Origin: a virus
IMG/VR virus record: IMGVR_UViG_3300022694_000001
Strand: one strand, 5' to 3'
Length of the DNA: 64,000 nt
The position numbers and the translations under genes were made by a program. Below, piece by piece: positions 38,401 through 60,097 of the stretch. Below the pieces are notes generated by a model. That model was given only the letters and a program-made list of their open reading frames with translations. It searched no databases and was not told the DNA's origin. The stretch's first letter is position 1. Each line of letters starts with the position of its first letter.

Positions 38401-38622
38401 ATGGCAAGATTCATCGTTTCTCGTGATACCCGGTCCAAGGTTGCCGTTGAAGCTGACGACGCGCAGAAGGCGCAGGAGATGGTGAAAACAGGCAAGGGCG
38501 ACGTGATCGACTACGACGAGACGTTTCGCGCGTCGGCGGACAAACGGCCGTTGACAGCATTGCCGACTGAACCGCCAGGTGTGGCGCCCGATGTGGTGCC
38601 CAAGACGGCTTTGCGTAAGTAA
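38401..38622 (+). CDS. Small hypothetical protein
   Basis: ATG 21 nt after motif copy 9. Confidence 0.6.
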   Translation: MARFIVSRDTRSKVAVEADDAQKAQEMVKTGKGDVIDYDETFRASADKRPLTALPTEPPGVAPDVVPKTALRK

Positions 38623-38629
38623 GGCCAGG

Positions 38630-42904: not shown

Positions 42905-45900
42905 ATGGCTGATGAGAATGACGAGCAGCAGCCAGAGCCGCCGGTAATCAACCGGGAGATCGGTCAGAATCCCCTAGTTCCGAGCGCGCCGGCAGACGCC
43001 GAAGAGGCCGCGCCGTTATCGTCGTTCATTCCTCCGGATCAACCTGCGCCACGGGTAATCGTGTTACCGCGGCCACGGCGACAAGGACCGTTGTATCCGC
43101 GCGACAGAATCAATCCGAGTTGGCATCCGAGGGATCGGGCGCCGAAGTACGGGCGTGCTGTAGATCAATTTGATGAAGCGGCCATGTACCGCGAGCAGCA
43201 TCCAGTCGAACGGGATCCAGAGACGGGTGCACTGCGACCGATGCGCGCTGATCAATATCGTCCCGGAAAAAACGTCATTAGTTACGACCAGCAGGGGCGC
43301 CCGAAACCCTTCGATATAGAGGACATGTACCGTGAGGAACAGGGGCAACGGACGAAATTAAACCGTGAAGCCGCGCAGACGTTAAAAGAAGCGCATGTTC
43401 AACTCGAGCGAGATCCGGACACGGGGGTAGTTAGCCCGGTACGCGACGATTCCGGCAACATTCAATATCGTCCGGGGAAAGGCGCGGTCAGTTACGACCA
43501 GCAAGGGCGCGCCATTCAAACACAGTACGACACCAGCGGTCCGAAGCAGGTGGAATTGGATAAGGACTCGGAGATTGGGCCAATCGAAGGGCGACCGCCT
43601 AACGAGCTTTACAAGCAGAACAAGTATTCCCCTTTTGAATACGTCGGCACGATTGATGAAGGCCTGAAACATTCGGACAAGAACATTCAGCAGGCTGCAC
43701 AAACGGCAAAATTGAAGCTGGAACACCGATTGCACGCCGCGGTGGCTAACGACCTGGGCCAGACAGTCAGCGAGCAATCGTTAGTGGTCCAGGGAAAGAT
43801 CAGCGATTTCAAGAGTAAGGGGAAATTACTCGGGCAGTTGAGTCAGCAACTCGATAATTTCGACGCTGAACATCCGGGCATTACCGAAACGGAAGGCGGT
43901 TTTCTGGGGATGGGCGCGCGGCCTAGTCAGACGGCGACAACGTTGCAGGCGCAAAAGGCTGATTTGCAAAAGCAGATCGAAGATTTACAAGGGCAAGGCT
44001 ATTCGACGGACCCGAAGGCGGTAACTGAGTTCACAAAAACCGATCGTGAATCGTTGGCGGCAACGCGCGCGGTGCACGGGGAGTGGTCGTCTGGCACACC
44101 GAAGGAACCCGGCGATTTTGACAGGCTGATTGACAGGCGCAAAGCGATCTTGGCCGAGCAAGGCGTTGACGTGGGCGAAGATCCAATTTTGCAATCGCTT
44201 GAGAAACGGCGCGCGGAGCTTGGGGTTGGAGCGCCGACACCGAAAGATCACGCGGCGGAGGATGAACTGCGCAAAGACGCTACGTTTGGGCCGTTACTGC
44301 AGGAGCGCGACCAGTTGCACTCCGCGCATGAGGCTGCCAGCAACGAGTTGCAAGGTATTCAGGACGAATACGACAAAGTGATCGGTCCGGTCCGCGAACG
44401 ATTGCGCGTGGGCCAGGCGCAGATCGCGCCGATACAAGCCGAAGTCGAGGCTTACAGCCACAAACTCGATCAGGTGCTAGGGATGCCGACGCCAGCGGCG
44501 GGCGACGAACAGGCGCTTGCGGCGCGTGAAGCTGAGTGGAGCACTCGAATCTCGCAGTTGACCGATCCGCGACAAAAAGCGCGGGTGCAAACAGTGTTGA
44601 ACGCTCTGGAGCCTGCAAAACAGCAACTCAGGATGGCGCAAGCGCAGTTGCAACCGGTGCAGGATACGCATGACGCGCTGGTAGAAGAGAACCAGCGGAT
44701 GATCGCGGACCGCCATGCGCAATTTGAGAACGAGTTGGGGCCGCAGAGAGAGGATCTGCAGGCGCGAATGGGTGCTGCGCATCAGCAACGGACCGTGACT
44801 GAGGCTGTGCGTAAAAGCGATGTGCTCGCAAACGTGCTTGGGCCGTTAATGGTGAACCCTAACGACCCAGGGTTTACGCCGTCGTTAGTCCAATCGATTC
44901 AAGAAAATTTAGATCGCCGGAAGCAGGAAGCGATCAAGTCTTGGGATTTTGAGCCAAACGATTTCGAGCGGGAATTATTCGGTGCGCCGTTTCGCATGGT
45001 CGGGGAAGGCTTAAAAGGCTTCGCGCATCTCTCTGAAGGTTTGTTAAAGCTGTTCCCGCAGGAAAAGAACGTTTCTGATCACGAGCAACACGCGGTCTTA
45101 ACCCGATGGGTGGCTGACCAACTTCTGAAAGTGCCAGGGGTGCTTTCGACGCCGCAAAGCGAGAAATCGTTAGCCGGCAAGGCTGGTGGATTTATCGGGG
45201 GCGTTGCTGGCGCAGTCGGCGCGGGGTTAATCGACCCGGCGATATTGGTGCCACAGTTTTTCGGTCAAGGTGTCAACGGTCAGATGGAAGCGGCGAAGCA
45301 AGCGGGAGCTGACGACGCGACGGCGCTAAAGGCTGGTGTTCTCGGTGGCACAATCAACGCGCTTCTGGCAATTCCGTTCGAAGGATTCGGTAAGGCGCTC
45401 ACGGAGACGTTTGGCAGCGCGAAACAGAGCGCGATTCAGAAAGCGTTAAAGGAATCATACGAGCGCGGAGGCGCGGAAGCTGTTGCCAATGATTTAACGA
45501 TTCTGCGTAACTCGATGATAAAAACCGCCGGGCGGTCCGCGTTTCAAAAGACTGCCGTGGATGCGTTGCAGCCCATCATTGAAGAAATCACCAAAACACC
45601 GTTGCAACGGGCGGGACAGGTTGGAATCGAAGTGCTAAAAGATAGCGCGCTTTTTGCCGGCGTTCAGGCAGCTCAAAACGCGGTTACAAAGACGTACAAT
45701 CCGGACACCGGGCTTTTCGAGAATGTTCCGACAGCGGCCTTTGAAGGCGGAGTGCTTGGGGCGTTCTTTGGTGGGTTACGGCAGGTTGGCCGGGCGCAAA
45801 AGGCTGGGGCGGCACGTGAAGAAATTGCGACTGGCTTGGCGAAACAGGCGCGTGCTGGCGAAGTGCAGCCGATGGGTGTGGAGAGAGCTTTGCCGGAGAC

Positions 45901-48900
45901 GGGGGTTACGGAGGGGCCGACCGAAACGCATGAACAGGCTTCTCGTAATGCTGGGGTTAGTCCGGTTGAAGGTGTTGATGAAGCGGGCCAAGGGCCAGGA
46001 CCGATCGAACAGGCGCACGGCGAGATAAACAATCTTGTGGTGCCGGATGTGTCGCCGGCTGTGAATACGGCGACGCAACATGCGTTGCGCGGGCTGATCA
46101 AAATTGCCAACGGCGAATCGATGGAAGCGTTGACCACGGCAGAAAAGGCGGCGGTGAACGCAAAGACGACCGATGGATTGCCTCGAGTTGTGATGGTGAA
46201 AAGGGCTGACGGCAAACAACAGCCGGTTATCACGGACGCGACGCTCGAACGGATCCGGCAGATTGCGCCGGTTACTGCACAAGTGATGCCGCAGAGCGAG
46301 GGTGAGCAACGGCAGCGGATACTTAATCCTGTTGAAGAAATAACGCCGGAATCTGGTTCAGTTGAAAAGGGAGAGATTCAACCAAACAAGAAAACTCCTG
46401 AGATTTCTCAACCGAGCTTCGAAGTGGCCATTGAGCGGCCGAGTGGCGAAGTGGAGACGCGGACGGTGCAGGCTGCGAGTGCAGAGGCCGCAAAGGGACA
46501 GGTCGCTGGTTCAATTTCTCCCGGACAGGGGATGGTGCGCGATGTTTCCGAAGTTCCACAGGCGATGTCCGGTTTTGTCCCCTTAGATGAGGGGCAAAAA
46601 ATGGACACGGCTACAGCCTTGTCGGATGAGATGGTGGGCCAGGTGCGGGAGCAGGCTGGCCGCGAGCTCCAACCGGAAGAGGAGCAGGCGGTGCGCGGTA
46701 TCGCGGAACGCGTTACGCCTGCGATTGAGAAGTTTCGAGGGGCGTTCAGTTCGATTCAGGCCACGCTTGAGCCGCGGGGGTCGATGGGTGCGTTCACGAC
46801 TATTCCCGAAGGTAAATTAGTGCTTTCGCTGCCGGACATTGTGCGGCACGCGCAGGAATGGGGCGAGCCGGAAGGTCCGGACCTGGTTGTTGAACAGGAA
46901 GCGATTCATGCGGTCGCGGACCAACTGCATCAGCAGGGCAAGATCGATCCGGAAGGTATTGCGCGCGATATGCCCGCTGAACTGCGGGAGCATGTGGCCG
47001 GCGTTTACAACCCGGACGTTCCGATGGAGGAGCGGAATGATCTCGAGGACGGCCACGAATTTTTGCGCTTACTGGTGCAACACCAGTTGAGAGTGGACGA
47101 AGGCAAAGTGGTCGATGCCGACGGGAAAGTAATCACCGAAAACTTGTCGCCTGGCTTTATCGCACGGATCCGGCAGGCGTTGGTGCGCTTGTTCGAAGTG
47201 TTTCGGGACATGGCGAAACGGCTCGGGGAGATGGGCGCGAAACCGGAGTACGTCGAGCAGGTGCAAAAAGCGCGGGATTTAATCGTTACCCGATTAAGAG
47301 AAGTTGACGCTGGCAGCCGCGGTGCGTATGAGACAACCAATGGCGGTAAGACGGCTCAGGTCAAAGGTAAAGGTGGTAAAGCTCCCGCAGAACGATCTGT
47401 GGAAGGGGAATTACGTGTCGAGCCTAAGCCGACAGCAGGCCAGGGACAAGTTGCGGGTGCTGGTGTTGGTGGAGCAGTTGGACAACCACATGGAGTCATG
47501 TCGGCTGCGACGAAAACTCTTACTGGCCAGGCTGGATCAGGTGCCGGAGCGGAACTGACCTCCAAGGAGATCGCTCAGGCGGCAATCGCGATTGGTGCTC
47601 CTCGGGATAAGATTACAAAACCGTGGTGGGATAAGGTCGGCAATAAGCACGTTCTCTCTCAGGGTGGGCGCTCGGTGAACGTGGCGTATGTTGCCCAGGA
47701 AGCCAGCAAGGGGCGCACGTCGCATGACGCGCTGGGTAATGCGTCGTCCGGTTACGATCTGAGTTTGCAGCCGCGTGACCGGAGCTTGGCGCAGTACCGG
47801 AAGCAATCGCAAAATATCGCGCAGAATTTGGACTTTGCGCAGGCGGCTTTCTTTCCCGAAACGACTACGCCGGCGACGACGGGCGACATCGGCGCGCCAG
47901 TGATGACGCCTACGGGAGACACGCTGATTGGGAACGGACGCGAGATAGGGATTAAAGCTGCGTACGCTGCGAACAGCCCGCAGGCGCGCGCTTACAAGCG
48001 AGATTTTGTGCATAACGCTGCCAGGTTCGGGATTGACCCTGCCGCTGTGATGAAGATGCGGCAGCCGGTGTTGAAACGGGTGATTCTGGATGATTTGCCG
48101 AAGGACGAGCTGATCAGGCTCAGCCAGGAATCCAATGAAGGCGTGGCGATGGGTGTGAACGCGACTGAGATCGCGAATCGCGACGCGACGCGGCTGACTC
48201 CTGAGATACTTTCCGAGTTTGATCCGAATTACGCGCTGGACGCGGCGAAGAATCGCGGGTTTTTGCGGAGTTACCTGCAGAACGTGGTCAGCGGCGCGGG
48301 CGCGAACGAGGCAAATATCAACTGGCCGGACCTTGCGCGGCGGGTGCGCGCTGCGGTGTTCACGTATGCGTATGGCGCGGATGAAGCGGGTCGGGCCGCG
48401 CTCGAGCGGTTACAAGGCGAAGACTCGAGCCGCAAAATCACGGACGGGCTTTTAACGGTGGCGCCGATCGTGGCTCGGATGAAGGCCGATATTGCCAGTG
48501 GCGATTTGTTTCCGCTGGATATTTCTCCGGAAATCGCGCGGGCGGTCCAGGATATTTCGGAGGCGCTTCGGGACAGGCCGAAAGGACAGAGCGCGAGCGT
48601 GGCGTTGGATGGGCTTGTTGCGCAGGGCGAGTTAATTCCGGCAGGCGACGCGCCTGCCCTACAACAATCGGTTCGTGATTTTGTGATTGCGAACCGCGGG
48701 AACCGGGCGGCGATCGAGGAGGCGTTGAGCAATTACGTCGAATCGGTGTATGAGATTGGGAATCCGAAGCAGCCGAACTTGTTTGGTGAACAGGCGGGAG
48801 AAGAATCGGATCGGACGCAACTTTGGAATTTAGCGACCAAGCCAGAAGCGATTGCGCCGAAGACAGAGCAGAGAGAACTTGCTGCGCAAGCTCTCAGAAG

Positions 48901-51900
48901 TCGGATGTCAGAGGACAGAGGGCAGCTTACGCCTCTGGATCACGTGATTCATCGGAAACTACGTGCCGGAAAGAGCGTGGAAACGGTCGCGAAAGAACAC
49001 GGCATGAAAGTGGAGCATGTCGAGCGGACTTATGACCGGGTGAATCGATCCCAGGAAATTCGAACTCTCCTATCACAACAAACATTTCGATCTGAAACCG
49101 ATGCTTTTGCTGCGGCAGAGAAGGCTAAACCGAGTTTCGATCAGACATTGGAAGACGTAGCTAAGGCTACCGGGGCGCGCGCAATGACTACGCCAATCAA
49201 GAGCAGGGAGCGCGCTGCGGCGAAGGTGGCGGCAGATTACAGGGGCGATTGGAGCAAGATCAAAGATTTGGTTCGCGGAACGATTGTGGTGCGCGATCTC
49301 GACCAGGCGAAGGCAGTCGTCGGAGCGTTGGCGCAACGGTTCGGAGTGGAACCCAAGCGTGACTTCAATCAGCCGTTACAGAGCGGCTACAGGGACGCTT
49401 TGTTTAATCCGATTATCAATGGCTACGTCGCCGAGATTCAGGTTCATATCGAACCGATCATTCACGCGAAAAGCACGTCGCACACATTTTACAAAAGACA
49501 TCAAGAAATTCAGCGCGCTGCGCAGGTAGAAAATCGTGCGTTAAACAGCCAGGAACTTCGGACTATCGAGCGTCTTAATATGGCGCAGCAGAGAATTTAC
49601 GCGGCGGCTTTCGGCAACATCTCGGGAGAGATCAGTTCGACGGCATCTGAAGGCTTGCAAGGAAAGGCACCGACCGATTTGATTTCTTCTGGCGTTATTG
49701 GTCGCGGAGAATCGCCGTCGAAAGCCCAAGCGGTCCCGTCCTTATCTACCACGATTCCGAAGCCGGCGGGGGCTTCCATGAAGGATTTAGCGTCGGGGAA
49801 GGCGGCGATTGCTTCTTCGTCTGTCATTCCACCTTCTCTTACACCGACTGGTGGTGTTCGTCATCAAGAAGTTTTGCTGGCGCAGAAACTCAAAGACACT
49901 GGGACGCTAGACCTATTCGGGGATTACGTGGGCGCGTTGCCGGCGGCGGCGAAAGCGAGTAAACCGGCGCTCAAACGCGAGGTTGAAAAGGATGTGCCGA
50001 GCCTTGCGGAGAGCGGGGCGGCGCTGAGCAATCTTTTTGAGTTGGCGCAGCCGGGGAAGACCTATGAGGTTTCTAACCCAGTCCAATTCCCGAAAGTTCT
50101 TTCGGCTACGAGATACAGTGACTCGACTGTTGCGAAGGTGGCACATAACTATGTTACCCACCAAACGGAATACGGATACCGTGTCGAGCTAGAGGATGGG
50201 CGTCAGTGGATCGGTTCGGCCAAGAATCGAGACGCAGCCATCACGAAAGCGCAATACGAGTTTCGAAAAACGTTGACGGAAGCGCCTGCGGCGGGTATTC
50301 CACAGGCAAATGAAGACGCAGTTCGAAAAACCGCCAGAGCTAACCGAAAAGCGAAGGTTGGCACTGAGACAGCAACCGGAGTGGATGACTTGTTTTCGCT
50401 CCTGGCTGAACAGCACGGATCCGAGCGAGATACGGGATTGGCTGGGGGGGTCGTACAAGACGCTATTGGAGCACCTGGACGAACTGACGTGGCGGGTGCT
50501 GGCGATCTACCTGGACACGAAACAGACGCCGGACGACCTGGCGGAAGCGTTACGGCAGGAGATACCGATGGAGGACGAGGACTCGCAGAACCCACTGACA
50601 CCGGAGGAAACGCAGCGCCTAGTGAAACTGGCGGAAAGCGCACACTTCCCAAGTTAGTTAGTCGGCCCGCGGACCCGAACGCTCGGAATTACGTCATTCC
50701 GCGCGACACAAAAGAGATTGCTCCACGCGGAGCGATGGCCAAACTGCGCGCCAATCAGGACGCGATCAAGTTACTGAAACAGATCGAGACCGAACAGCGT
50801 CTCGCGACTCCTGAAGAAAAATCGCAACTGGTCAAGTATTCGGGTTGGGGCGCGCTCTCCCAGGCGTTCGATGACGCAAAGGCGGATCGAATTGCCGCTG
50901 GTGAGATCTCGGAACTGAATACCGAGCTGCAACGTTATCGTGGCTACCAGGAGAGGAATCGCGAGTCCAGTTATTACAGCGGCGAGATTGGGCGACTAGA
51001 AAAAGACATCCGCAGCCTTGAAAGCTGGCAAAGCAAGTGGGGCGACATTCACTCCGAACTAAAGTCGATGCTCACCCCGGACGAATACAAGCGCGCGATG
51101 CGAAGCACGATCAACGCGCATTATACCTCTCCAGAGATGATCAAGTCCATGTGGGACATTGCCGCGCATCTCGGATTCAAGGGCGGTAACGTGCTCGAGC
51201 CCGGCGCCGGTATCGGTCATTTCTTTGGGCTTATGCCGGAAGAGCTTTTATCCCGGTCCAGTCTTCATGCAGTAGAGCTCGACGACATTAGCGGCCGGTT
51301 GACCAAGATGCTTTATCCGGAGGCCGACGTGCAAATCACTGGCTTCCAAAACGCGGACATCGCCGATGGGTCAGTGGACCTGTCGATTTCAAATGTGCCT
51401 TTCGCGAATGTGCCGGTCACGGACAAGGCGATGGAACTCTCCGGCGGGCCTACGGATAACCTGCACGATTATTTCCTGGCCAACATGATCAAGAAGTTGC
51501 GCCCCGGCGGATTAAACATCGCTATTACAAGCGCGTTCACGATGGACAAGGGCGCGAGCGAAAACCGAAAATGGATGGCAGACCGCGCGGACCTGGTAGC
51601 GGCGTTCCGGTTGCCGAACAACGCTTTCAAGGCCAATGCAGGCACGGATGTGGTGACTGATATTTTGGTGTTTCGCAAAAAAGATGGACAGATTTTTCCG
51701 CACGCGAAGGATTGGACGATGCTGGATAACGCTACGACACAAAAAGGCGATCCGATTCGGGTAAACCAATATTTCGCGCAGCATCCACAGGATATTCTTG
51801 GGTTCCTGGCAGACGACGGCGAGATGTTCGCGCACGGCGCCGGCGAAAAAGAGATGACGGTGCACGCGGACCCAAACCGGCCGCCTGCGGTGGCGCTGGA

Positions 51901-54900
51901 GCAAGCCATTGACAATTTACCGAAGGACATCGCAGGCGACGGGAACGCGGCCGAAGTGCGCAGCAACGATCCGACCATCTCGAAGATGGGGAATATCGTG
52001 GAGAAAGACGGCAAGTATTTCTTCCACGGGCAAGCGGAGCCGGACGAGGCGTTGAATGATCCTAAGAACGCGAAGCGAGTTCGAAAGTTTATTGAGACGC
52101 GCGACGTTTTGAATGAGCAGTACCGGCTGGAACTGGATCCGGAAGCGACCGACGAAGATGTTGAAGCTAATCGTCGGATGTTGAACGCGCGTTACGATTC
52201 GTTCACCGCCGATTTCAGTAATTTTCATACTCCGAAAAACAAAGGGCTATTCATTGACGATCCGGATTGGTTCCGGTTGGCCGGCGCGGAGACACCGATT
52301 CAGGTTTCAGGCGGCGTTAAAGAGATGTTGTCGATTTTGGACGGCAAAAAGAGCCGACAATTTACAAAGGCCGACGTGTTCAAGAAACGCGTGCTTACGC
52401 CGATCATTGAACCCACGAAAGCTGACAGTCTAGAAGACGCTTTCGGAATGAGTCTCGGTTGGCGCGGTCGCGTGGACCTTGGCTACATTTCGGATTTAAC
52501 CGGCCAAAGCCGGGAACAAGTGGAACAAGGATTGGTCGCATCCGGCATCGTGGTGCGCGACCCAGAAAACGGGCAACTTCAATCTCGCGAGCAATACCTG
52601 GCTGGCAATGTGCGTAAGAAACTCGACATCGCTAAAGCCGCAGGCCCGGATTACGAGCGCAACGCTCAAATGCTAGAGGCGGTTCAACCGGAGGACGTGC
52701 CAATCGACGAAATCCGGTTCAAGATCGGCGCGACATGGGTGCCAGTGGACGCTTACCAGCAATTCCTGAGCACGATCGGGATTGAGTTACCCATTGAATA
52801 CCACACAGCTCTCGCCGGCGGGCGCGACTTTTACACCGTAGGCTTGCGTGATTACCGTGCGACCGGTGTAGCGCACAAAGATTTCAGGACAGACCAGGTG
52901 AGTGTGCCTGAGTTGATGGACTCGATGCTGAACATGAAGCGCATCGAGGTTCTCCACACCGACAAGGATCGAAAGGGTGATACCGATGAAGGCGCAACTA
53001 TGGCGGCTAGGGATGCGGGTAAACGGTTGAGTGACGCTTTTGTGGCTTACGCGAAAGGCAATGCGGAGCTTGGTCCGCGGCTCGCGCAAATCTATAACCG
53101 CGAGGCGAACGGGTTCGCGCAACGGACGTATGACGGACAATTCCTTACTCTCCCGTGGAAAAATAAGGATTTCGATCTTTTCCCCGACAAAAAGAACGTC
53201 ATTTGGCGCGCGATACAAGATCGATATGCACTAATTGCGTGGGGCGTTGGCGGCGGCAAAACAGTGATTGCGGCCGGGATCGCGCTTGAATTGCGTCGCC
53301 TCAAACTAGCGTTAAAGCCGATGGTGGTGGTGCACAACTCCACGCTGGAGCAGTACGCCGACGAGATTGCGGTGATTGCGCCGAGCGCCCGGGTATTGAT
53401 CGGACGCAAAGACGAACTCTCTGGCGCGAAACGGAAAGAGTTCCTGATGCGAATTGCTGCCGGCGACTGGGACGCGGTAGTTATCGCGCATAGCACCTTC
53501 GGATTGATCGAAGACGACCCAGTGTTTCAGACAAAACACATGGAATCGCTCGTGGACGAAGCGATGCAGAGTTTAACGGATCGCGGATACAACTCAGTCT
53601 CGGATGCCAAGAAATCGCGCGAACCCAGTGTGAAGCAACTAGTCAAGATGATCGAGCAGCTTGAGACGAAGATTCAGGCACTTTCCGAGCGAAAAACCGA
53701 CACGGGCCTCTTGAATTTCCAACAACTCGGCGTGGACGCGCTGATCGTGGATGAAGTGCACAAGTTTAAGAAAATGCCGTTCTCGACCAAGCTGGACGTA
53801 AAAGGCATCGACAGCGGCATGAGCCAGCGCGGTTACGCCATGTTGCTCCGAGCCAGGTCAATTCAGGAGCGTAACGGCGGCAAAAACGTGTTCTCGATGA
53901 CTGGCACGCCAGTCACGAATACGCTGGGGGAAATCTGGAACCAGGTAAGACTGGTGGCGCCGCATCTCCTGAAAGAATACGGCGTTGAAACGTTCGATCA
54001 ATTCGTCAGCAAGTTTGCCGAGGTCGAGACGATCAGCGAAGCCGGCCCGAGCGGTGAACGCAAGATGGTGGAGCGCCTATCGAAGATCGTAAACCTGCCT
54101 GAGTGGTCCACATTTTTCCGGCAAGCTGCCGACGTGAAACTGGGCGACGACATGGTGGTAAAGAATCGTCCGGGCATCAAAGGAGGCGGCGGACAACTGA
54201 TCGCGCTGGAGCGCACACCTGGCACGGCCGCGTGGGTTAATTATATCCGCAACGTGCTCGAAGGGTTCAAAGAGCTAAAATACGACGATTTTAAGGATAA
54301 TAAGAGCCTGTTTGCTGTGCCGGTGCAGGCTTACATCGCGAGCCGAGCCGCAGCGATCGACATTCGGTTGATCGAACCGCGCGCCAAAGATGAGTCGGGC
54401 AGTAAGGCTAACAGGGCGGTTCGCGGCATAATCAAACTCTATCGAGAGACCACGCCATACAACGGGACACAGGTGATCTTCTCCGACTCGTTCAACCAAG
54501 TCAAAACCAGTTTGTTTGATGCCGTGGTGCCACGGTCGAATCTCAACCTAGAGCTCGACCCCAGTAAACCGCCAGGAACGACATTTAATCTTTACGAAGA
54601 CATCAAGGCGAAACTGATAGCTCTCGGCGTGCCGGCGGAAGAAATCGCGATTGTTGCCGACAAAGAATTTGATAATGCCAAGCGAAAAAAATCACTCTTC
54701 GAGGATGTGAATAAGGGCAAGGTTCGCATCGTGATGGGCAGCACGGAGAAACTCGGCACCGGCGTCAACATGCAGGAGCGGATGCTTGCGGCGTGGAACC
54801 TGGACGTTCCGTGGACAGCCGCAGGGTTAGAGCAACGCGACGGGCGCGTGTATCGGCAAGGCAATGTGCACGCGGAGATGGGCGTACCCGTGGAATTGAC

Positions 54901-57900
54901 GCGGTTGGGAATGAAAGACACGCTGGATGAATCGCTCTGGAAAATTATTGAGCGCAAACTGCGGATCCAGAAACAGGCGTTAAGCGGTAAGATCGTGGGG
55001 CGCGAACTCGAAGAGATGAGCGATGTCCTGAGTCTCGCGGAGCAAGCCTCGATTTTAAGCGGCCCATACGGAGCCGAGAGTTTCGAGCTGGATAGCCGGA
55101 TTCGGGAATTAGAAGGGAGCCGGGCCGGGCACGACCGTCAAGTTGCAAACCGAGATTCGGAGATCAGGTCGTCGAAAGAATGGCTGCGCCAGCAGGAAGC
55201 CGAAGAGGCGCGGTCTGAGCCGGCGATGCAGTTAATGGCAAAACTCGGTGAGCGCGTCTCGAAAGACGGTGCTCAGATCACGGTAGATGGCGATTCGTTT
55301 GAGACTAAGACGGCGATGGTGGAGCGTGTGAACGCGTTATTGGACGCGGAGAAAAACAAACCGACCAACGAAAAAAGCAAAGCCATTTTCTCAGTGGCGG
55401 TCAACGGCGTTCCGGTGCGGTTGGATGTTACTCCTACAGAATATGACGAATGGGATGTTGCGGGTGTAGAAAGCAAGAGGGTAACGAAACCGTCCGCGCA
55501 GTTCGATCTGATGGCGACGGATTCCAATAGCCCGAAATTCGGGCGCGTAACCAGCGCGGCGACGCTGTTGGCGCGCCTCGAGGAATTAAGCGGGACGGTG
55601 GACGGAATCAGGGAAGGCCGAAAGAATAACACGGCGCGATTACGGCAACTGGCCGAGATGCAGCAATTGGGTAAATGGCCGTTTAAAGAGGAATACCAGA
55701 GAGCACTTGCGCGACAGAAAGAGCTTTTGAAGCTGATGCGCGGGGAAGAACTCAAAAAAACAGGAGAAGGAGAAGAAACGCCGAACGCTCAACGCCCAAC
55801 GCCCAACGCTCAACCGGCAGAATTGCGAGCACAGGCGACGGCGGATGCTGCCAAGACGCCGGCGGAACGGTTTAAGGATGCGTGGCCGTTGGCTGAATCG
55901 ATTGCACGCTCGTATTCGAATATCCCCGGCGTGACGCTGAAGGACGTGGAGCAACATGCCCGGATTGCTCTGGTGCGCGCGGCGCGTGAGTTTGATCCTG
56001 CTCGCGGGGCCGCAATGGACACGTTTGCGCGCAAAGTGGTCGGGAATGAGTTGCGCAGTCTTTACGGCAGGCAGATGCGAACGGCGGGGCGGGAATCGAC
56101 GGTGCTGGATGTTCCCGTCTCCGCCGAAGGCTCTGCCGCGGTTTCACAAAAAGAAAACATCGTCGGGCCGAGCGATGTTCGGGCGGACGTGGCGCGGACT
56201 GAGGCGACACAAATGCTTTCGACCGCGATTGACGAGTTGCCGGACAAAATGCGAGACGTGATGAATGGAATCTTGTCCGGGAAAGAGACGCTGGGCGAGA
56301 TCGGGGAACGGCTTGGCGGATTACCGAAACAAGCCGTAGGCCGGCTGGCGAGTGCGGCTATGCGCCGGTTGAAAGGGAAACTTGGTGAGAAAGGCGTTTC
56401 TGGTGTGACGGATCTGTTGAGTCAGGAAACGACCACGGATAACACGGATACGGAGAAAAAGACGTTATCGGATTTCTTGGCGAAGCATGATGCGTCGAAG
56501 GGCACCGTTCCCGCTAAAAAGATAGCTGAGCCGACTAGGAGGAATGTTAAGTTAGCTGAGAAGCTCGGAAATCAATCAACGAGAGACTCGTCTGTTGTTC
56601 CTAATTTTCGGCCTGTGGAGCAGGAAATCGCGATTGGAAGGGCTTATGGCTACAGCGATAACGACATCGCAGCATACTTGCAGCGCAATTACGTGGATCG
56701 AATACCCGAACGTGTTGCGCAAACGTCTGTAGGCGTTCGACCACCGCAGGAGCTAATTGACAAGTATCCAGAGTTAAAACACGCCATTAAAGTTTCCGAG
56801 AAATATGGGCATTTAGTGAAACTCAGCGAGCAACTGGAACTACTGAGTCAGGTCGTCGAGGATGAAGTGAAGCTGTCTGAATCGGCTGATCCGGTGGCGT
56901 CGTTCATGGAGCTTATGCGGGATGATCCGGTTGAGAAGTTGCGCGGTATAAAAGGCATTGGGCGGCCTGATCTGGCGCTGGGCGCGGAGCCTGCCATGCG
57001 GCCGGTGCACGAGTTTCATACTGCCACGGCTACGCCGCAAAAACTGGATGATTGGGACAAACAAGGCGAAGCGATTTTGCGCAGCCGCGGCGACAAATTG
57101 CCAGCGGATGTTACTAAACGTTGGCTGGATGGCTCAGTGCTCGAGCCCGCGGAAGTGCGCGCGACACAGCAATATCTCATCGAAAAACAGGGGCAACCGA
57201 AGACGCCAGAGGAACAACGCGGGTATGACGCGTTGGCGTACGCTTATACCAAGATCGGGGAAGCGACCGCACGGGCGTTGTCTGCGCGCCGTGATCCGTT
57301 CAAAACGCCGGAGGAGAGGAACCGTGAATTTATCGGGAAAGCTCTTGTGCATTTGTCGGCTACTGAAGATCGCGAACTGGACGCGATTGCCGATCACAAG
57401 GAGAAAGTGGCGCGCTTGGAGCAGATCGTTCAGGGGCGACGCACTCAGATCAACGCGGCGCTGGAGCATGTCGCCGGAAAGGGCGTGACGATTGACGATA
57501 TTTTGTCCGGCGGCACGGAATTGCGGTTAAAAGGCGCCAAAATGATCGAGAATCAGATGGCGGGTTACGGCGAATCGGAAAAGAAAGTGATCAAGCTGGC
57601 GCAGACCGGGGCGCGCAGCGCTGCGGAGATTGCGAAAGCGACAGGGCTCAGCGTCAAACAGGTCAACGACATCAACGACCAGTTCGTATCCGATCTGGAA
57701 ACGAAATTGATGGCTAAGACTCGGGCCGGGGCGACGCTTGAGAATTTGGATGCGCAGCAGATTGCACTTTTGGCGCAGGAGACGGAACGGCGGCCAGGGG
57801 CCTCCGCTACAGTATCCGAAGACGTTGCTCGCGCTGAGGCGCGAAAAATGATCAAGGCGATGGGGTTTGTGGCGAGCAAGGATTTGGGCACGATGAAAGT

Positions 57901-60097
57901 GGTTAGGCGGAAGCGATCGAAATTGTTTATTCCTCCTTCGCCAAGACCTGCGGCCGACACGGCCGCCCCTACACCTGGTGAGTTGCCTACGGGACAAGAG
58001 ACGCAGGCTCCGATGATGTTTGGCGGTGAGCGCAGTCCGGTGGCGCCGCGCGAAGGTGAGTTGCCGCGTCCGGCAGGACAGCAAGCGCCTTACACCGGAC
58101 GCGTGCTGGGGCAGATCGGGTTGCCGCTTTATCAGGAAATGATGATTCGTAAAGGAGCGGACATGAGTGAGCCGACTGACGTGGCGCGGCTTGGGAACGT
58201 GATTCACGCGGCAACGAGCGGGAACGCGTTCGACATGGTTTATGAAGCGTGGATTAACAACATTCTTTCGGGGCCGGCTACGCACATGGCGAACATTACC
58301 GGCAACGCGGTCTCTACGGCGTGGGATTTTAGTTTACAACGCGGTTTGGAGTCGTTGGTGAACCTGGCTTATCGCGACGCGGATTCGGCGCAGCTCGGGG
58401 AGTTTAAGCATATCGTGAACGGCATTGTGCCGGGGTTGCGTCGCGGGTTGTCGATCGCGGTCAAGGCGTGGGGCGCAGAAGCCGATTTCTTCCGGAACGA
58501 CGTGCTCAATGAGCAGGTGGAAATGTTCCAGGACTTCGAGAAAGGATCAGGCGGCGCTCTTGGTCCTGCTATTCCCGGCCGGACCGGACGCGTGATCAGG
58601 ATGCCGGGACGCGCGCTGATGTTCATGGACGCGGCGTTCAAGGGGTTAATCGGGCAAATGGAAGCAGGCGCGGTCGCGTATCGGATCGCGAAGCGCGAAG
58701 GGTTGACCGGCGACGCGATGGCCACGCGTATGAACGAACTGGTCGCCACACCGAACAGCGAAGCGTGGCAGCGCGCAGTGGATAAAGCTGTAAACCTCAC
58801 GTTCCAAGATCAGATGCGAACCAAAGAAGAGGGCGGCAACCCGTTTGAGAACGCCGTTGCGCGGTTTAACCAGATGCGGACCGGCAGCCATTTGCTGGGG
58901 TTCTTTTTCCCGTTTATCCGGACGCCATACAACATTTTCAAGATGGGCCTGCGCAAAACGCCATTGGGCAGCGCGAACATGGCCTGGCGCTTTTCGAAAG
59001 CGGGTTTTTACCGGTTCAAGGATGGCAAGCCGATGTTCGAAAGCTACGATAAAGGCGAGCAGGTGAGGCATTTGGCGGAGCAATTGATCGCATGGGCGAC
59101 GTTCGCTGCGCTCTGGGCGGCGACGACCGGCGATGATGACGATGACAAAAAAGCGTTGCTCTTTACCGGGTCCACGCCGGTAACGGAAGTAAGGCGCAGT
59201 GAACGCGAGTTGAGGACGCGGTTGCACGGCGGGCAGTACCAGATTCGGGTAGGCGGCCGCAACGGTGTTTACATCAATTACGGGCGTTATGAGCCGTTCG
59301 CGACGGTGATCGGGACTGTGGTGGACGCGATTACGAACCTCAAAAAGATCAAGCGCGGCCAGACGCTCGGTGAAAGTCTGGACGCGATGTACGGTTATTT
59401 TCTGGCACAGGCGAAATCGAAAACGTTTTTACAGGGGTTTGCCGAGATTGCGGACTCGCTCGAGAGCGGCGGTGGCGTTAGGGGTGGCATCACTGAGGCG
59501 GGCAAAAAGATGTTGTTAAGCGCGCTAGTGCCGAATCTCGTCAGGCAACCGTTACGCAACCTCGATGAATGGGTGCGCGACACGAAAGGCGCTGCACCCA
59601 TTTACCAGATGCTTCCCGCGGGTTCGTTAGCGGAAAGGAAAGCTGATCTGTGGGGGCGCGACGTGCAAAAGAGCGGAAACATCTTCAGCAGGTTATTCCT
59701 GGCGACCGGGACAAAGGTTGAGCCGGACGCGCAAAAGGTAGATTTGCTGTTGCAGAATTGGGTTCATCAAAACCCGGGTGGGGCGCGCGAATTGAGCGTG
59801 CCGTCGAGCGCGATCAACAGGACGTACAAGGACGCGATCGGTAAAGAAGCGCAAATGACACCCGAGCAGTTTCACCGGTTTACGGTGGACTCCGGGAAAC
59901 TGGCGCTAACTCGGTTACGGGGGAAATTCACGCAACGTCAGATCGATCATCCGAAGGCGGAAGATGTGAAGATGATTCGGGGCGCGCTGGAAGATGCGCG
60001 GCGTGAAGTGAAAGAGCGGATGTTTCCGGCGGGACCACGCGGCTTCGGGCATCCACGGCAGGCGATTAACTTACGCGAAGTGATGTGGGCCGCATGA
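42905..60097 (+). CDS. 5730-aa polyvalent virion protein: ejection-like N-terminus, degenerate zincin, ddrB-type ParB, HTH, RelA/SpoT-like, DarB-like N6-MTase + SNF2 helicase, sigma-70-like, HTH, internal-virion C-terminus
   Basis: EQEAIHAV; YDLSLQPRDR...LIGNGR; KSRERAAAK/DLVRG/GYRD/EIQ; VLEPGAGIGHF, SNVPF; GVGGGKT, DEVHKFK, STEKLGTGVNMQ, EQRDGRVYRQGN; FDPARG and region-4 HTH; AWINNILSGPATH. Confidence 0.9.
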   Translation: MADENDEQQPEPPVINREIGQNPLVPSAPADAEEAAPLSSFIPPDQPAPRVIVLPRPRRQGPLYPRDRINPSWHPRDRAPKYGRAVDQFDEAAMYREQHPVERDPETGALRPMRADQYRPGKNVISYDQQGRPKPFDIEDMYREEQGQRTKLNREAAQTLKEAHVQLERDPDTGVVSPVRDDSGNIQYRPGKGAVSYDQQGRAIQTQYDTSGPKQVELDKDSEIGPIEGRPPNELYKQNKYSPFEYVGTIDEGLKHSDKNIQQAAQTAKLKLEHRLHAAVANDLGQTVSEQSLVVQGKISDFKSKGKLLGQLSQQLDNFDAEHPGITETEGGFLGMGARPSQTATTLQAQKADLQKQIEDLQGQGYSTDPKAVTEFTKTDRESLAATRAVHGEWSSGTPKEPGDFDRLIDRRKAILAEQGVDVGEDPILQSLEKRRAELGVGAPTPKDHAAEDELRKDATFGPLLQERDQLHSAHEAASNELQGIQDEYDKVIGPVRERLRVGQAQIAPIQAEVEAYSHKLDQVLGMPTPAAGDEQALAAREAEWSTRISQLTDPRQKARVQTVLNALEPAKQQLRMAQAQLQPVQDTHDALVEENQRMIADRHAQFENELGPQREDLQARMGAAHQQRTVTEAVRKSDVLANVLGPLMVNPNDPGFTPSLVQSIQENLDRRKQEAIKSWDFEPNDFERELFGAPFRMVGEGLKGFAHLSEGLLKLFPQEKNVSDHEQHAVLTRWVADQLLKVPGVLSTPQSEKSLAGKAGGFIGGVAGAVGAGLIDPAILVPQFFGQGVNGQMEAAKQAGADDATALKAGVLGGTINALLAIPFEGFGKALTETFGSAKQSAIQKALKESYERGGAEAVANDLTILRNSMIKTAGRSAFQKTAVDALQPIIEEITKTPLQRAGQVGIEVLKDSALFAGVQAAQNAVTKTYNPDTGLFENVPTAAFEGGVLGAFFGGLRQVGRAQKAGAAREEIATGLAKQARAGEVQPMGVERALPETGVTEGPTETHEQASRNAGVSPVEGVDEAGQGPGPIEQAHGEINNLVVPDVSPAVNTATQHALRGLIKIANGESMEALTTAEKAAVNAKTTDGLPRVVMVKRADGKQQPVITDATLERIRQIAPVTAQVMPQSEGEQRQRILNPVEEITPESGSVEKGEIQPNKKTPEISQPSFEVAIERPSGEVETRTVQAASAEAAKGQVAGSISPGQGMVRDVSEVPQAMSGFVPLDEGQKMDTATALSDEMVGQVREQAGRELQPEEEQAVRGIAERVTPAIEKFRGAFSSIQATLEPRGSMGAFTTIPEGKLVLSLPDIVRHAQEWGEPEGPDLVVEQEAIHAVADQLHQQGKIDPEGIARDMPAELREHVAGVYNPDVPMEERNDLEDGHEFLRLLVQHQLRVDEGKVVDADGKVITENLSPGFIARIRQALVRLFEVFRDMAKRLGEMGAKPEYVEQVQKARDLIVTRLREVDAGSRGAYETTNGGKTAQVKGKGGKAPAERSVEGELRVEPKPTAGQGQVAGAGVGGAVGQPHGVMSAATKTLTGQAGSGAGAELTSKEIAQAAIAIGAPRDKITKPWWDKVGNKHVLSQGGRSVNVAYVAQEASKGRTSHDALGNASSGYDLSLQPRDRSLAQYRKQSQNIAQNLDFAQAAFFPETTTPATTGDIGAPVMTPTGDTLIGNGREIGIKAAYAANSPQARAYKRDFVHNAARFGIDPAAVMKMRQPVLKRVILDDLPKDELIRLSQESNEGVAMGVNATEIANRDATRLTPEILSEFDPNYALDAAKNRGFLRSYLQNVVSGAGANEANINWPDLARRVRAAVFTYAYGADEAGRAALERLQGEDSSRKITDGLLTVAPIVARMKADIASGDLFPLDISPEIARAVQDISEALRDRPKGQSASVALDGLVAQGELIPAGDAPALQQSVRDFVIANRGNRAAIEEALSNYVESVYEIGNPKQPNLFGEQAGEESDRTQLWNLATKPEAIAPKTEQRELAAQALRSRMSEDRGQLTPLDHVIHRKLRAGKSVETVAKEHGMKVEHVERTYDRVNRSQEIRTLLSQQTFRSETDAFAAAEKAKPSFDQTLEDVAKATGARAMTTPIKSRERAAAKVAADYRGDWSKIKDLVRGTIVVRDLDQAKAVVGALAQRFGVEPKRDFNQPLQSGYRDALFNPIINGYVAEIQVHIEPIIHAKSTSHTFYKRHQEIQRAAQVENRALNSQELRTIERLNMAQQRIYAAAFGNISGEISSTASEGLQGKAPTDLISSGVIGRGESPSKAQAVPSLSTTIPKPAGASMKDLASGKAAIASSSVIPPSLTPTGGVRHQEVLLAQKLKDTGTLDLFGDYVGALPAAAKASKPALKREVEKDVPSLAESGAALSNLFELAQPGKTYEVSNPVQFPKVLSATRYSDSTVAKVAHNYVTHQTEYGYRVELEDGRQWIGSAKNRDAAITKAQYEFRKTLTEAPAAGIPQANEDAVRKTARANRKAKVGTETATGVDDLFSLLAEQHGSERDTGLAGGVVQDAIGAPGRTDVAGAGDLPGHETDAGRPGGSVTAGDTDGGRGLAEPTDTGGNAAPSETGGKRTLPKLVSRPADPNARNYVIPRDTKEIAPRGAMAKLRANQDAIKLLKQIETEQRLATPEEKSQLVKYSGWGALSQAFDDAKADRIAAGEISELNTELQRYRGYQERNRESSYYSGEIGRLEKDIRSLESWQSKWGDIHSELKSMLTPDEYKRAMRSTINAHYTSPEMIKSMWDIAAHLGFKGGNVLEPGAGIGHFFGLMPEELLSRSSLHAVELDDISGRLTKMLYPEADVQITGFQNADIADGSVDLSISNVPFANVPVTDKAMELSGGPTDNLHDYFLANMIKKLRPGGLNIAITSAFTMDKGASENRKWMADRADLVAAFRLPNNAFKANAGTDVVTDILVFRKKDGQIFPHAKDWTMLDNATTQKGDPIRVNQYFAQHPQDILGFLADDGEMFAHGAGEKEMTVHADPNRPPAVALEQAIDNLPKDIAGDGNAAEVRSNDPTISKMGNIVEKDGKYFFHGQAEPDEALNDPKNAKRVRKFIETRDVLNEQYRLELDPEATDEDVEANRRMLNARYDSFTADFSNFHTPKNKGLFIDDPDWFRLAGAETPIQVSGGVKEMLSILDGKKSRQFTKADVFKKRVLTPIIEPTKADSLEDAFGMSLGWRGRVDLGYISDLTGQSREQVEQGLVASGIVVRDPENGQLQSREQYLAGNVRKKLDIAKAAGPDYERNAQMLEAVQPEDVPIDEIRFKIGATWVPVDAYQQFLSTIGIELPIEYHTALAGGRDFYTVGLRDYRATGVAHKDFRTDQVSVPELMDSMLNMKRIEVLHTDKDRKGDTDEGATMAARDAGKRLSDAFVAYAKGNAELGPRLAQIYNREANGFAQRTYDGQFLTLPWKNKDFDLFPDKKNVIWRAIQDRYALIAWGVGGGKTVIAAGIALELRRLKLALKPMVVVHNSTLEQYADEIAVIAPSARVLIGRKDELSGAKRKEFLMRIAAGDWDAVVIAHSTFGLIEDDPVFQTKHMESLVDEAMQSLTDRGYNSVSDAKKSREPSVKQLVKMIEQLETKIQALSERKTDTGLLNFQQLGVDALIVDEVHKFKKMPFSTKLDVKGIDSGMSQRGYAMLLRARSIQERNGGKNVFSMTGTPVTNTLGEIWNQVRLVAPHLLKEYGVETFDQFVSKFAEVETISEAGPSGERKMVERLSKIVNLPEWSTFFRQAADVKLGDDMVVKNRPGIKGGGGQLIALERTPGTAAWVNYIRNVLEGFKELKYDDFKDNKSLFAVPVQAYIASRAAAIDIRLIEPRAKDESGSKANRAVRGIIKLYRETTPYNGTQVIFSDSFNQVKTSLFDAVVPRSNLNLELDPSKPPGTTFNLYEDIKAKLIALGVPAEEIAIVADKEFDNAKRKKSLFEDVNKGKVRIVMGSTEKLGTGVNMQERMLAAWNLDVPWTAAGLEQRDGRVYRQGNVHAEMGVPVELTRLGMKDTLDESLWKIIERKLRIQKQALSGKIVGRELEEMSDVLSLAEQASILSGPYGAESFELDSRIRELEGSRAGHDRQVANRDSEIRSSKEWLRQQEAEEARSEPAMQLMAKLGERVSKDGAQITVDGDSFETKTAMVERVNALLDAEKNKPTNEKSKAIFSVAVNGVPVRLDVTPTEYDEWDVAGVESKRVTKPSAQFDLMATDSNSPKFGRVTSAATLLARLEELSGTVDGIREGRKNNTARLRQLAEMQQLGKWPFKEEYQRALARQKELLKLMRGEELKKTGEGEETPNAQRPTPNAQPAELRAQATADAAKTPAERFKDAWPLAESIARSYSNIPGVTLKDVEQHARIALVRAAREFDPARGAAMDTFARKVVGNELRSLYGRQMRTAGRESTVLDVPVSAEGSAAVSQKENIVGPSDVRADVARTEATQMLSTAIDELPDKMRDVMNGILSGKETLGEIGERLGGLPKQAVGRLASAAMRRLKGKLGEKGVSGVTDLLSQETTTDNTDTEKKTLSDFLAKHDASKGTVPAKKIAEPTRRNVKLAEKLGNQSTRDSSVVPNFRPVEQEIAIGRAYGYSDNDIAAYLQRNYVDRIPERVAQTSVGVRPPQELIDKYPELKHAIKVSEKYGHLVKLSEQLELLSQVVEDEVKLSESADPVASFMELMRDDPVEKLRGIKGIGRPDLALGAEPAMRPVHEFHTATATPQKLDDWDKQGEAILRSRGDKLPADVTKRWLDGSVLEPAEVRATQQYLIEKQGQPKTPEEQRGYDALAYAYTKIGEATARALSARRDPFKTPEERNREFIGKALVHLSATEDRELDAIADHKEKVARLEQIVQGRRTQINAALEHVAGKGVTIDDILSGGTELRLKGAKMIENQMAGYGESEKKVIKLAQTGARSAAEIAKATGLSVKQVNDINDQFVSDLETKLMAKTRAGATLENLDAQQIALLAQETERRPGASATVSEDVARAEARKMIKAMGFVASKDLGTMKVVRRKRSKLFIPPSPRPAADTAAPTPGELPTGQETQAPMMFGGERSPVAPREGELPRPAGQQAPYTGRVLGQIGLPLYQEMMIRKGADMSEPTDVARLGNVIHAATSGNAFDMVYEAWINNILSGPATHMANITGNAVSTAWDFSLQRGLESLVNLAYRDADSAQLGEFKHIVNGIVPGLRRGLSIAVKAWGAEADFFRNDVLNEQVEMFQDFEKGSGGALGPAIPGRTGRVIRMPGRALMFMDAAFKGLIGQMEAGAVAYRIAKREGLTGDAMATRMNELVATPNSEAWQRAVDKAVNLTFQDQMRTKEEGGNPFENAVARFNQMRTGSHLLGFFFPFIRTPYNIFKMGLRKTPLGSANMAWRFSKAGFYRFKDGKPMFESYDKGEQVRHLAEQLIAWATFAALWAATTGDDDDDKKALLFTGSTPVTEVRRSERELRTRLHGGQYQIRVGGRNGVYINYGRYEPFATVIGTVVDAITNLKKIKRGQTLGESLDAMYGYFLAQAKSKTFLQGFAEIADSLESGGGVRGGITEAGKKMLLSALVPNLVRQPLRNLDEWVRDTKGAAPIYQMLPAGSLAERKADLWGRDVQKSGNIFSRLFLATGTKVEPDAQKVDLLLQNWVHQNPGGARELSVPSSAINRTYKDAIGKEAQMTPEQFHRFTVDSGKLALTRLRGKFTQRQIDHPKAEDVKMIRGALEDARREVKERMFPAGPRGFGHPRQAINLREVMWAA
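47328..47558 (+). CDS. Nested +1-frame ORF inside the giant gene (76 aa)
   Basis: MRQPMAVRRLRSKVKVVKLPQNDLWKG...KLRVLVLVEQLDNHMESCRLRRKLLLARLD; third positions GC-rich in this frame, A/T-rich in the main frame. Confidence 0.5.
   Translation: MRQPMAVRRLRSKVKVVKLPQNDLWKGNYVSSLSRQQARDKLRVLVLVEQLDNHMESCRLRRKLLLARLDQVPERN
49597..49827 (-). CDS. Nested antisense gene behind the RelA/SpoT-like domain (76 aa), candidate immunity protein
   Basis: MTDEEAIAAFPDAKSFMEAPAGFGIVVDKDGTAWAFDGDSPRPITPEEIK...; purine-rich aagagaaggtgga before ATG; sense frame here is S/A/G/P-rich. Confidence 0.6.
   Translation of the reverse strand: MTDEEAIAAFPDAKSFMEAPAGFGIVVDKDGTAWAFDGDSPRPITPEEIKSVGAFPCKPSDAVELISPEMLPKAAA
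50310..50657 (+). CDS. Nested +1-frame ORF inside the giant gene (115 aa, or 90 aa from ATG 50385)
   Basis: ...IRDWLGGSYKTLLEHLDELTWRVLAIYLDTKQTPDDLAEALRQEIPMEDEDSQNPLTPEETQRLVKLAES; codons ctg gac gaa ctg acg tgg cgg gtg ctg gcg atc tac. Confidence 0.6.
   Translation: MKTQFEKPPELTEKRRLALRQQPEWMTCFRSWLNSTDPSEIRDWLGGSYKTLLEHLDELTWRVLAIYLDTKQTPDDLAEALRQEIPMEDEDSQNPLTPEETQRLVKLAESAHFPS
55777..55813. repeat. AACGYYS heptamer array inside the giant ORF
   Basis: aacgccg aacgctc aacgccc aacgccc aacgctc aa (TPNAQRPTPNAQ). Confidence 0.75.

Follow-up and report, generated by a model that had tools for sequence, protein, structure and literature searches.

In a 64,000-nucleotide (nt) stretch of viral DNA, IMG/VR record IMGVR_UViG_3300022694_000001 (hereafter the window), a giant plus-strand open reading frame (ORF) contains a toxin-type nucleotide pyrophosphokinase domain, and directly behind this domain a 76-codon ORF lies on the opposite strand. 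Codon-level comparison of this nested antisense ORF with its relatives identifies it as a real gene under purifying selection, and selection in the stretch shared by the two frames was shown, by the same comparison, to act mainly on the minus-strand protein. We consider it probable that the 0.8-kb segment is a two-strand toxin–immunity cassette built into a phage polyvalent protein. Immunity is the most likely function of the 76-residue protein, as inferred from its obligate linkage to the toxin domain, its top-ranking fold match to the immunity protein Tis1, its Tis1-like size and the precedent of related toxins (PMC10083569).

The toxin domain spans residues 2063–2236 of the giant protein (49091..49612, plus strand) and was identified as a Tas1/Apk1-like RelA/SpoT-fold pyrophosphokinase using phmmer, AlphaFold2 (AF2) and Foldseek. 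The sequence search matched it to Tas1 in the PDB (6ox6_A, E = 7.1e-13), with an alignment running through PIKSRERA..K, IKDL.R.TI.V and EIQV. The AF2 model of residues 2063–2236 has a predicted local distance difference test score (pLDDT) of 94.9, and Foldseek with this model again placed Tas1 first (6ox6_A, E = 7.5e-10, template-modelling (TM) scores 0.74/0.67), followed by the exported alarmone synthetase SaEAS and then by Rel, SAS1, RelP, RelA and SpoT, among 57 matches at E ≤ 1e-3. The motifs KSRERAAAK, DLVRG, GYRD and EIQ all fall within these residues, and the domain ends at ...RIYAAAF. Every residue that is invariant in an 11-sequence alignment of the family is kept in the window, namely the K/R/K of KSRERAAAK, the Asp of KDLVRG, GYRD, the Glu and Gln of EIQ, and a His and a Tyr; the roles of the catalytic and nucleotide-binding motifs (basic Lys/Arg, Asp, GYRD, the EIQ Glu and His-x-x-Tyr) are taken from PMC12226406 and PMC12691689. 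Pfam, including RelA_SpoT PF04607, gave no family for residues 2040–2340 at E ≤ 10; the Tas1/Apk branch lies outside the reach of the RelA_SpoT model. On sequence and model comparison, the domain is a RelA/SpoT-fold synthetase of the Tas1/Apk branch. A search of 1.8 billion representative proteins returned 2254 homologues at E ≤ 1e-3, the best 150 of which range from 158 to 5894 amino acids (aa). An earlier reading of the letters and ORF list alone (the sequence-only reading) had proposed a RelA/SpoT-like synthetase domain with these motifs in the giant ORF, and the Tas1 match in both sequence and fold upholds it. Its assignment to the toxic small alarmone synthetases (toxSAS) holds insofar as this is a RelA/SpoT homologue (RSH) toxin domain; the kinship to FaRel, PhRel and CapRel does not, the closest relative being Tas1/Apk1 and CapRel appearing only 42nd and 50th among the fold matches (E = 3–5e-4).

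The nested antisense ORF (49827..49597, minus strand), defined by translation and by the comparative tests described below, consists of an ATG, 76 codons and a TAA, and encodes the candidate Tis1-like immunity protein. The ORF is preceded by a purine-rich leader, GAGAAGGTGGA, then ATG, and is present as the sequence-only reading had described it. Its TAA (49599–49597) is the reverse complement of the sense Ile-Tyr junction ATT TAC, in RIY, and the next stop upstream of the ORF mirrors CGT-CAT. The opposing sense frame, residues 2237–2309 (49613..49830, plus strand), was characterised with a tail profile and by resampling; it is a low-complexity read-through of the antisense gene, rich in Ser, Ala, Gly, Thr and Pro. 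Third codon positions of the two frames coincide, and the only sense residues able to give rise to an antisense stop are Tyr and, after a T-ending codon, His or Gln. A linker poor in Tyr, His and Gln stays open in the antisense direction because stops need those sense codons. Antisense ORFs of 76 aa or more number 31 in the giant gene, and 13 of these have an ATG; the ORF alone is therefore no evidence of a gene.

Relatives of the domain supplied the comparison. A profile search located a tail of approximately 80 aa, immediately C-terminal to the domain, in at least 56 of the best 150 domain homologues; the proteins with this tail are 290 to 5894 aa long, and the hydrophilic sense consensus of the tail is ..ATSARNS.SETGAPLR.AES.GN.RG...SQA...TG.PSTSKNS...GN... 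The toxin domains across which the embedded gene is conserved are only 35–57% identical to that of the window. The two closest relatives, P0003 and P0004 (5.4 thousand aa (kaa)), have the linker segments ISSTASEGLQ and ASSSVIP in common. All relatives are uncultivated. DNA was examined for 11 metagenome and 12 IMG/VR loci (23 in all), of which 21 distinct loci entered the tests, a modest sample. Close relatives were not found by scans of IMG/VR with domain patterns or by tblastn against GenBank phages; a search of a genome collection gave one distant match only, and 401 sampled genomes of one phylum gave one weak match, which contains a stop.

In every locus with DNA the antisense frame is open over the tail and terminates at a conserved Tyr or at a second one several codons further along, and the antisense proteins follow the pattern M..LP..FP.G.EFFDVEG.PVS......AWD..PPR.F...S..RNGAP.SE..F..LV. 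The window belongs to a clade of three sequences (the window itself, L001 and L009) that has diverged from the main group, with 17–27% identity. In six loci (L019–L021 and L026–L028) the antisense ORF ends at the second sense Tyr (..IYDAAY..), slightly further on in L028, so that these ORFs end 4–10 codons earlier than the others and have a different C-terminus (..KARS). A further homologue, P0006 (594 aa), has two tandem Tas1-like domains, neither with a tail behind it.

Since conservation of one frame is automatically mirrored in the other, each frame was tested with the protein of the other held fixed, on a codon alignment of the 21 loci guided by the sense protein; a first resampling run had covered 11 loci. 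In Test A the sense protein was kept and its synonymous codons were resampled by each gene's own usage (300 randomisations). In the tail, antisense identity was 0.431 against a null of 0.340 (z = 26) and the antisense BLOSUM score 1.85 against 1.03 (z = 23.7); no antisense stop was present where 9.9 ± 2.8 were expected, and none of the 300 randomisations reached zero. The adjacent catalytic domain served as the control, giving an identity of 0.367 against 0.357 (z = 4.3), a BLOSUM score of 0.969 against 0.932 (z = 1.6) and 114 stops against 99. Synonymous resampling ignores shared ancestry, and this control gauges the size of that effect at z = 1.6–4.3. In Test B the antisense protein was kept and its own synonymous codons were resampled. 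Sense identity in the domain was then 0.439 against 0.294 (z = 59), and in the tail 0.399 against 0.374 (z = 7.6). Taken together, the two tests show that in the tail the sense frame owes its conservation to the antisense protein, rather than the antisense protein to the sense frame. The minus-frame conservation and purifying selection that the sequence-only reading called for in homologues are thus seen, and the stops that would have broken the frame are absent from all 21 loci.

Individual sites agree with this. For the conserved antisense Trp to be encoded, the sense codon before a Gln has to end in C, as it does in 9/9 sequences, where that codon specifies four different amino acids. Within EFFDVEG, the Glu needs a pyrimidine and the Asp a purine at four-fold degenerate sense sites; the Glu is kept in 11/11 sequences and the Asp in eight, being replaced by Glu in the three window-clade sequences.

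These results bear on the suggestion that the ORF is a chance by-product of a conserved sense linker poor in Tyr, His and Gln. The restriction of stops to sense Tyr, or to His/Gln after a T-ending codon, and the 31 antisense ORFs of the giant gene are what that suggestion would lead one to expect, and the mirror composition of a stretch rich in Ser, Ala, Gly, Thr and Pro looks protein-like in any case. Yet once synonymous codons are resampled with the sense protein unchanged, much of the antisense conservation is lost (z = 24–26) and about 10 stops appear, against almost no effect in the domain control; the sense conservation is accounted for by the antisense protein rather than the other way round, and a GGAGG, a start and a promoter at fixed positions accompany a confident AF2 model (see below). 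We regard a chance origin as extremely improbable. It had been our initial expectation, and was rejected on the synonymous-codon resampling. The claim that the sense stretch is filler has accordingly to be qualified: its Ser/Ala/Gly/Thr/Pro-rich composition is as described, but it is not free filler, being conserved in a manner that mirrors the antisense protein.

The relatives carry putative expression signals on the antisense strand. An exact GGAGG stands 4–8 nt before an ATG or GTG in 15/21 distinct loci, opening proteins of 63–78 aa, and most of the starts in these 15 loci share one alignment column (±1). On the sense strand the GGAGG corresponds to an ACC-TCC codon pair, both third positions of which are conserved as well. 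Further upstream, a TAnnnT hexamer has its end exactly 19 nt from the start in 10/21 loci and 22–25 nt from it in three more, and in six loci a TTG(A/C/T)CA lies 17 nt upstream of the TAnnnT. Given the conserved GGAGG, starts and promoter boxes, the family appears to carry a full promoter–ribosome-binding site (RBS)–ORF unit on the antisense strand, and these conserved signals make expression of the antisense gene in the relatives a putative one. Across L010–L029 a conserved sigma-70-type antisense promoter can be recognised some 19–60 nt upstream of the starts, the sense motif S-I-P / I-V-P being its mirror.

The window copy is less well equipped. Its Shine–Dalgarno-like sequence, GAAGGTGG (49829..49836, minus strand), stands 1 nt before the ATG, or may be read as GAAGG with a 4-nt spacer, and is weaker than the GGAGG of the relatives. 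A weak promoter-like TTGATG-N18-TGTAAG (49838..49867, minus strand) is not significant alone, and a consensus promoter scan of 49300–50300 returned no site. The absence of an exact GGAGG and of a scan-level promoter, together with the divergence of the window clade (17–27% identical to the main group), would fit a family gene that is real elsewhere and a silent relic here, open because the sense linker tolerates it. We judge this improbable in view of the window clade itself. Test A on the three sequences alone (window, L001 and L009) gave z values of 7.4 and 7.1, against 2.1 and 1.3 in their own control, so that the antisense protein is still preserved within the clade; the window and L001 have their ATG at one and the same alignment position, and the window sequence is modelled with a pLDDT of 90.8. 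A −10-like box near the ATG in these two sequences would fit a near-leaderless transcript, on a speculative view.

The AF2 model of the window's 76 residues, for which the alignment consisted of the 11 antisense sequences only, has a pLDDT of 90.8 and a predicted TM score (pTM) of 0.76, and comprises a helix, a small sheet and three short helices. The remark that the ORF reads like a folded protein is supported by this confident fold; the composition argument on its own is weak, because a sense stretch rich in Ser, Thr, Ala, Gly, Pro and Lys automatically mirrors to Asp, Glu, Val, Ala, Pro, Gly, Phe and Leu. Pfam and PHROGs contain no family for the nested ORF, and a protein-atlas feature search with it gave no usable match. 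A profile search found 119 homologues of the small protein among proteins called by gene finders, of 63–136 aa, none with a Pfam family or an informative name. One of them, P0156 (136 aa), has two tandem copies of the small-protein domain, and P0239, P0233 and P0267 have extra C-terminal or N-terminal sequence; these four may be free-standing genes.

Exhaustive structural alignment of the ORF model against 48,161 solved chains placed Tis1 (6ox6_B, 76 residues) first, with Z = 4.0, a root-mean-square deviation (rmsd) of 5.0 Å and 59 aligned residues; for this tool, a Z under 8 may reflect a mere common arrangement. In a second look Tis1 again came first, the next chain having Z = 2.7. Foldseek with the ORF model gave nothing at E ≤ 1e-3 in the PDB and only small uncharacterised proteins among the AlphaFold DB clusters. 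The first match in a shape search of the atlas was a 349-aa HD_4/HD cluster (TM score 0.58, weak), a suggestive but weak hint at alarmone hydrolase fusions. Although the Z is low, the first-ranked chain is the natural partner of a toxin from the same family that the opposite strand encodes, and such a match is unlikely to be due to chance.

What is known of related toxins points the same way. A tis1-like gene invariably goes with an Apk toxin, and Tis1 covers the active site of its toxin (PMC10083569). A small single-domain protein encoded with an Apk/Tas1-type toxin is what is found here, at 76 aa and in 23/23 loci. The proposal that the nested gene confers immunity is in this way supported indirectly, by linkage, by Tis1 as the top match at Z = 4.0, by equal size and by the rule from the Apk toxins (PMC10083569).

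Several observations weigh against the toxin–immunity interpretation and should be set beside these. The Tis1 match is weak (Z of 4.0, rmsd of 5.0 Å), and profiles of 11 and 101 sequences found no Tis1 chain in the PDB at E ≤ 10; sequence divergence is usual in the Tis1 family, however, since Tis1 and BcTis1 are only 24% identical (PMC10083569). Co-folding of the domain with the ORF scored 0.23, below the 0.32 mark, and was used neither for nor against binding. Toxicity of the domain and its synthesis of (p)ppApp are assumed from homology to Tas1. The window copy has neither the canonical GGAGG nor a promoter as clear as that seen in most relatives. The one metatranscriptome found to contain part of this DNA, from freshwater sediment, has a 151-nt contig identical to window positions 50317–50467, which falls inside the giant ORF and outside the nested gene; such contigs are without strand information, and this one could be RNA or carried-over DNA.

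Some of these points would suit a gene that is real and has another role: it might regulate the toxin gene (convergent transcription being one conceivable route), serve the polyvalent protein as a chaperone or packaging adaptor, or encode a small phage protein that has nothing to do with the toxin and shares its DNA by accident. All of the coding evidence fits such roles equally, the co-fold score of 0.23 lends no support to binding, and the Tis1 fold match is low in Z and unaccompanied by sequence similarity. Against them stands the fact that the gene occurs strictly and exclusively at the 3′ edge of a Tas1-like domain, whatever the carrier; the top of 48,161 chains is moreover the cognate immunity protein of the homologous toxin, and most loci have no other candidate immunity ORF. 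A role other than immunity seems to us unlikely.

The preferred interpretation, a toxin–immunity cassette, would work as follows. On the plus strand, the Tas1/Apk-type domain would, by homology, make (p)ppApp from ATP or ADP and drain the adenine-nucleotide pool. The minus strand directly behind it encodes the 76-aa protein, a member of a conserved family that had no name before. With no stop before the small gene, the toxin ORF reads through the reverse complement of that gene, third positions coincident, and the read-through yields a hydrophilic linker to which more domains can be fused downstream. In most relatives the small gene has its own promoter, GGAGG and start codon, judging from sequence. 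Its product would be Tis1-like in binding the synthetase domain and blocking the active site, and would protect the virion-producing cell, and perhaps also a lysogen receiving the toxin from a related phage. The giant protein would be delivered with the phage DNA, as published polyvalent proteins suggest.

Whatever its function, the pair behaves as a unit. In 11/11 metagenome and 12/12 IMG/VR loci the 3′ edge of the toxin domain harbours the nested ORF, the host proteins measuring 290 to 5730 aa. The carriers of domain and ORF are polyvalent proteins of 5.4–5.7 kaa, with the pair in mid-protein; open frames of 2365, 1211 and 1121 aa; proteins of 630–850 aa encoded in a conserved phage gene order; open frames of 460–500 aa, where the pair is C-terminal; and a 290-aa protein. 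Most relatives examined have no small gene after the toxin, and gene finders called the nested ORF in 0/14 contigs with gene tables. This distribution fits a module that moves as one piece, and the idea that domain and antisense gene travel as a single cassette is borne out by their joint presence in 23/23 loci with DNA, over carriers of 290 to 5730 aa. Whether the module arose when an old Tis1-like gene, with its own promoter and RBS, was swallowed by the toxin frame, to give a self-contained two-strand module insertable in frame into any carrier, is in our estimation evenly balanced. If so, toxin domain and antidote now share an uninterrupted segment of DNA without a stop codon on the toxin strand. 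The module would always bring immunity along, whether its carrier was a short effector, a 5700-aa polyvalent protein or a head protein of the MuF kind, and this would account for the survival of producers when toxin domains are shuffled into phage polyproteins.

The carrier in the window is a giant polyvalent-protein ORF (42905..60097, plus strand; 5730 aa, from the ORF list and its translation). Upstream of the toxin domain it encodes a ddrB-like ParB domain (aa 1588–1726; 47666..48082, plus strand; Pfam PF18763, E = 3.4e-15), a hallmark of polyvalent proteins. Downstream are a DarB-like methyltransferase and superfamily 2 (SF2) helicase module (50747..55924, plus strand; phrog_10089, E = 0, 1098 bits; ResIII and Helicase_C) and sigma-70 regions 2 and 4 (aa 4328–4490; 55886..56374, plus strand; PF04542 and PF04545, both over their cut-offs, and phrog_1740). 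A very large phage protein with several unrelated conflict domains is thus encoded, and by its predicted domain architecture (ddrB-ParB, DarB-like module, RSH and sigma-70) it is of the published polyvalent type. A sigma-like module delivered by the virion would, if so, be of interest in its own right; one relative of the giant protein, P0003, bears the JGI name RNA polymerase sigma factor.

The giant ORF follows a terminase-like gene (38579–40444), a position that is the sole support found here for packaging and injection of the giant protein, which are otherwise inferred from published polyvalent proteins. The other phage genes of the window encode DNA methyltransferases, a DnaB-like helicase, an HNH endonuclease and the terminase-like protein, and no integrase was found among ten further window proteins scanned. 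The source type of the phage DNA is freshwater-sediment metagenomes. In the phage replication region, a gene for a DnaJ-domain protein (28572–29189, plus strand) adjoins one for a DUF5131 protein (29186–29962, plus strand).

The domain–ORF pair is bracketed in the translation, as had been pointed out, by the motifs LLSQ upstream of the domain (49067..49078, plus strand) and LLAQ downstream of the nested gene (49874..49885, plus strand). The upstream L-x-[SA]-Q motif is kept in P0003 (LGSQ) and P0004 (LKAQ); downstream, P0004 has LRSQ and P0003 no such motif. These motifs may be cleavage sites, or they may be due to chance.

Among known systems, the closest solved relative of the toxin, in sequence and in fold, belongs to the Tas1 (Apk1)–Tis1 pair of the Pseudomonas aeruginosa PA14 type VI secretion system (T6SS; PDB 6OX6; PMC10083569), whose partner protein is likewise a single domain of 76 residues and is the top structural match of the nested ORF. 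There, tis1 is a separate gene co-expressed with tas1 (PMC10083569), whereas the candidate partner gene in the window is contained entirely in the toxin ORF, antisense to it. The part of PAAR and the T6SS in delivery would be taken here by a phage polyvalent-protein carrier, and Tis1 and the nested-ORF protein have no detectable sequence similarity.

The MuF-Apk2 prophage toxins with IapK/BcTis1 and Aph1 (PMC10083569, PMC12226406, PMC11699363) likewise place a phage-borne (p)ppApp-synthetase domain on a virion-associated carrier, always with a Tis1-like binder. Many relatives of the window domain resemble them in residing in 650–850-aa proteins within a conserved phage gene order. In the MuF-Apk2 systems, however, the immunity genes are separate ORFs after the toxin gene, often with the hydrolase Aph1 added, while here the candidate binder is nested antisense and no small ORF follows downstream. 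No hydrolase was seen among the proteins scanned, a scan that did not cover the window exhaustively. On the contig of P0133 (GCA_041447055.1), a tail-bearing toxin homologue has, two genes upstream of its own, a gene with an HD_4 domain (small-alarmone-hydrolase type), which may represent a second, enzymatic immunity of the Aph1 kind.

The toxSAS modules FaRel, PhRel and CapRel (PMC7229694, PMC11782079) also combine a toxic RSH synthetase with a neutralising protein. They are stand-alone small synthetases in toxin–antitoxin operons, whereas the present domain is part of a 5730-aa protein and its partner is on the opposite strand; CapRel is far behind Tas1 as a fold match of the window domain. 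RelA/SpoT domains had already been noted in the polyvalent proteins of phages and conjugative elements (Iyer, Burroughs, Anand, de Souza and Aravind 2017; PMC5512222), and the available text of that survey describes giant multidomain proteins with ddrB-ParB, a DarB-like methyltransferase–helicase and a RelA/SpoT-type domain, as here, and proposes that they are injected with the DNA. The same text places the domain in prophages of Spirochaetes and Epsilonproteobacteria, rather than in a freshwater-sediment phage contig, and mentions neither an immunity partner for the RelA/SpoT domain nor an antisense gene. Wherever toxin domains occur in phage polyvalent or MuF-type proteins, the question arises of how the producing cell survives, and in the present case the answer may sit on the other strand.

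Pore-forming colicins offer a further parallel, in that their immunity gene is on the strand opposite the toxin gene and has its own promoter; it lies between the colicin and lysis genes, however, without overlapping the coding sequence of the toxin. Whether prokaryotes and their viruses have protein-coding genes embedded antisense in other genes is disputed, and the majority of those put forward are of recent origin. Those of E. coli O157:H7 and P. aeruginosa (PMC9927249, PMC8850804) are, like the nested ORF, fully embedded in antisense; the available portions of these reports describe them as novel or evolutionarily novel, whereas the present gene is conserved across toxin domains of 35–57% identity, and here it is the embedded gene, not the host gene, that dominates the constraint. 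The nested ORF lies wholly inside an opposite-strand gene and is under purifying selection in its own frame, and it is set apart by conservation across divergent toxins, signals at fixed positions, a confident predicted fold and selection mainly on the embedded frame. Standard gene finders usually report no gene on that strand, and surveys of immunity genes that are restricted to annotated neighbours will miss such antisense genes. RSH domains in polyvalent proteins and Apk–Tis1 pairs were already known. No account of an immunity gene lying antisense within the gene of its own toxin came to light in the literature searched, and such an arrangement is what the candidate gene described here would add.

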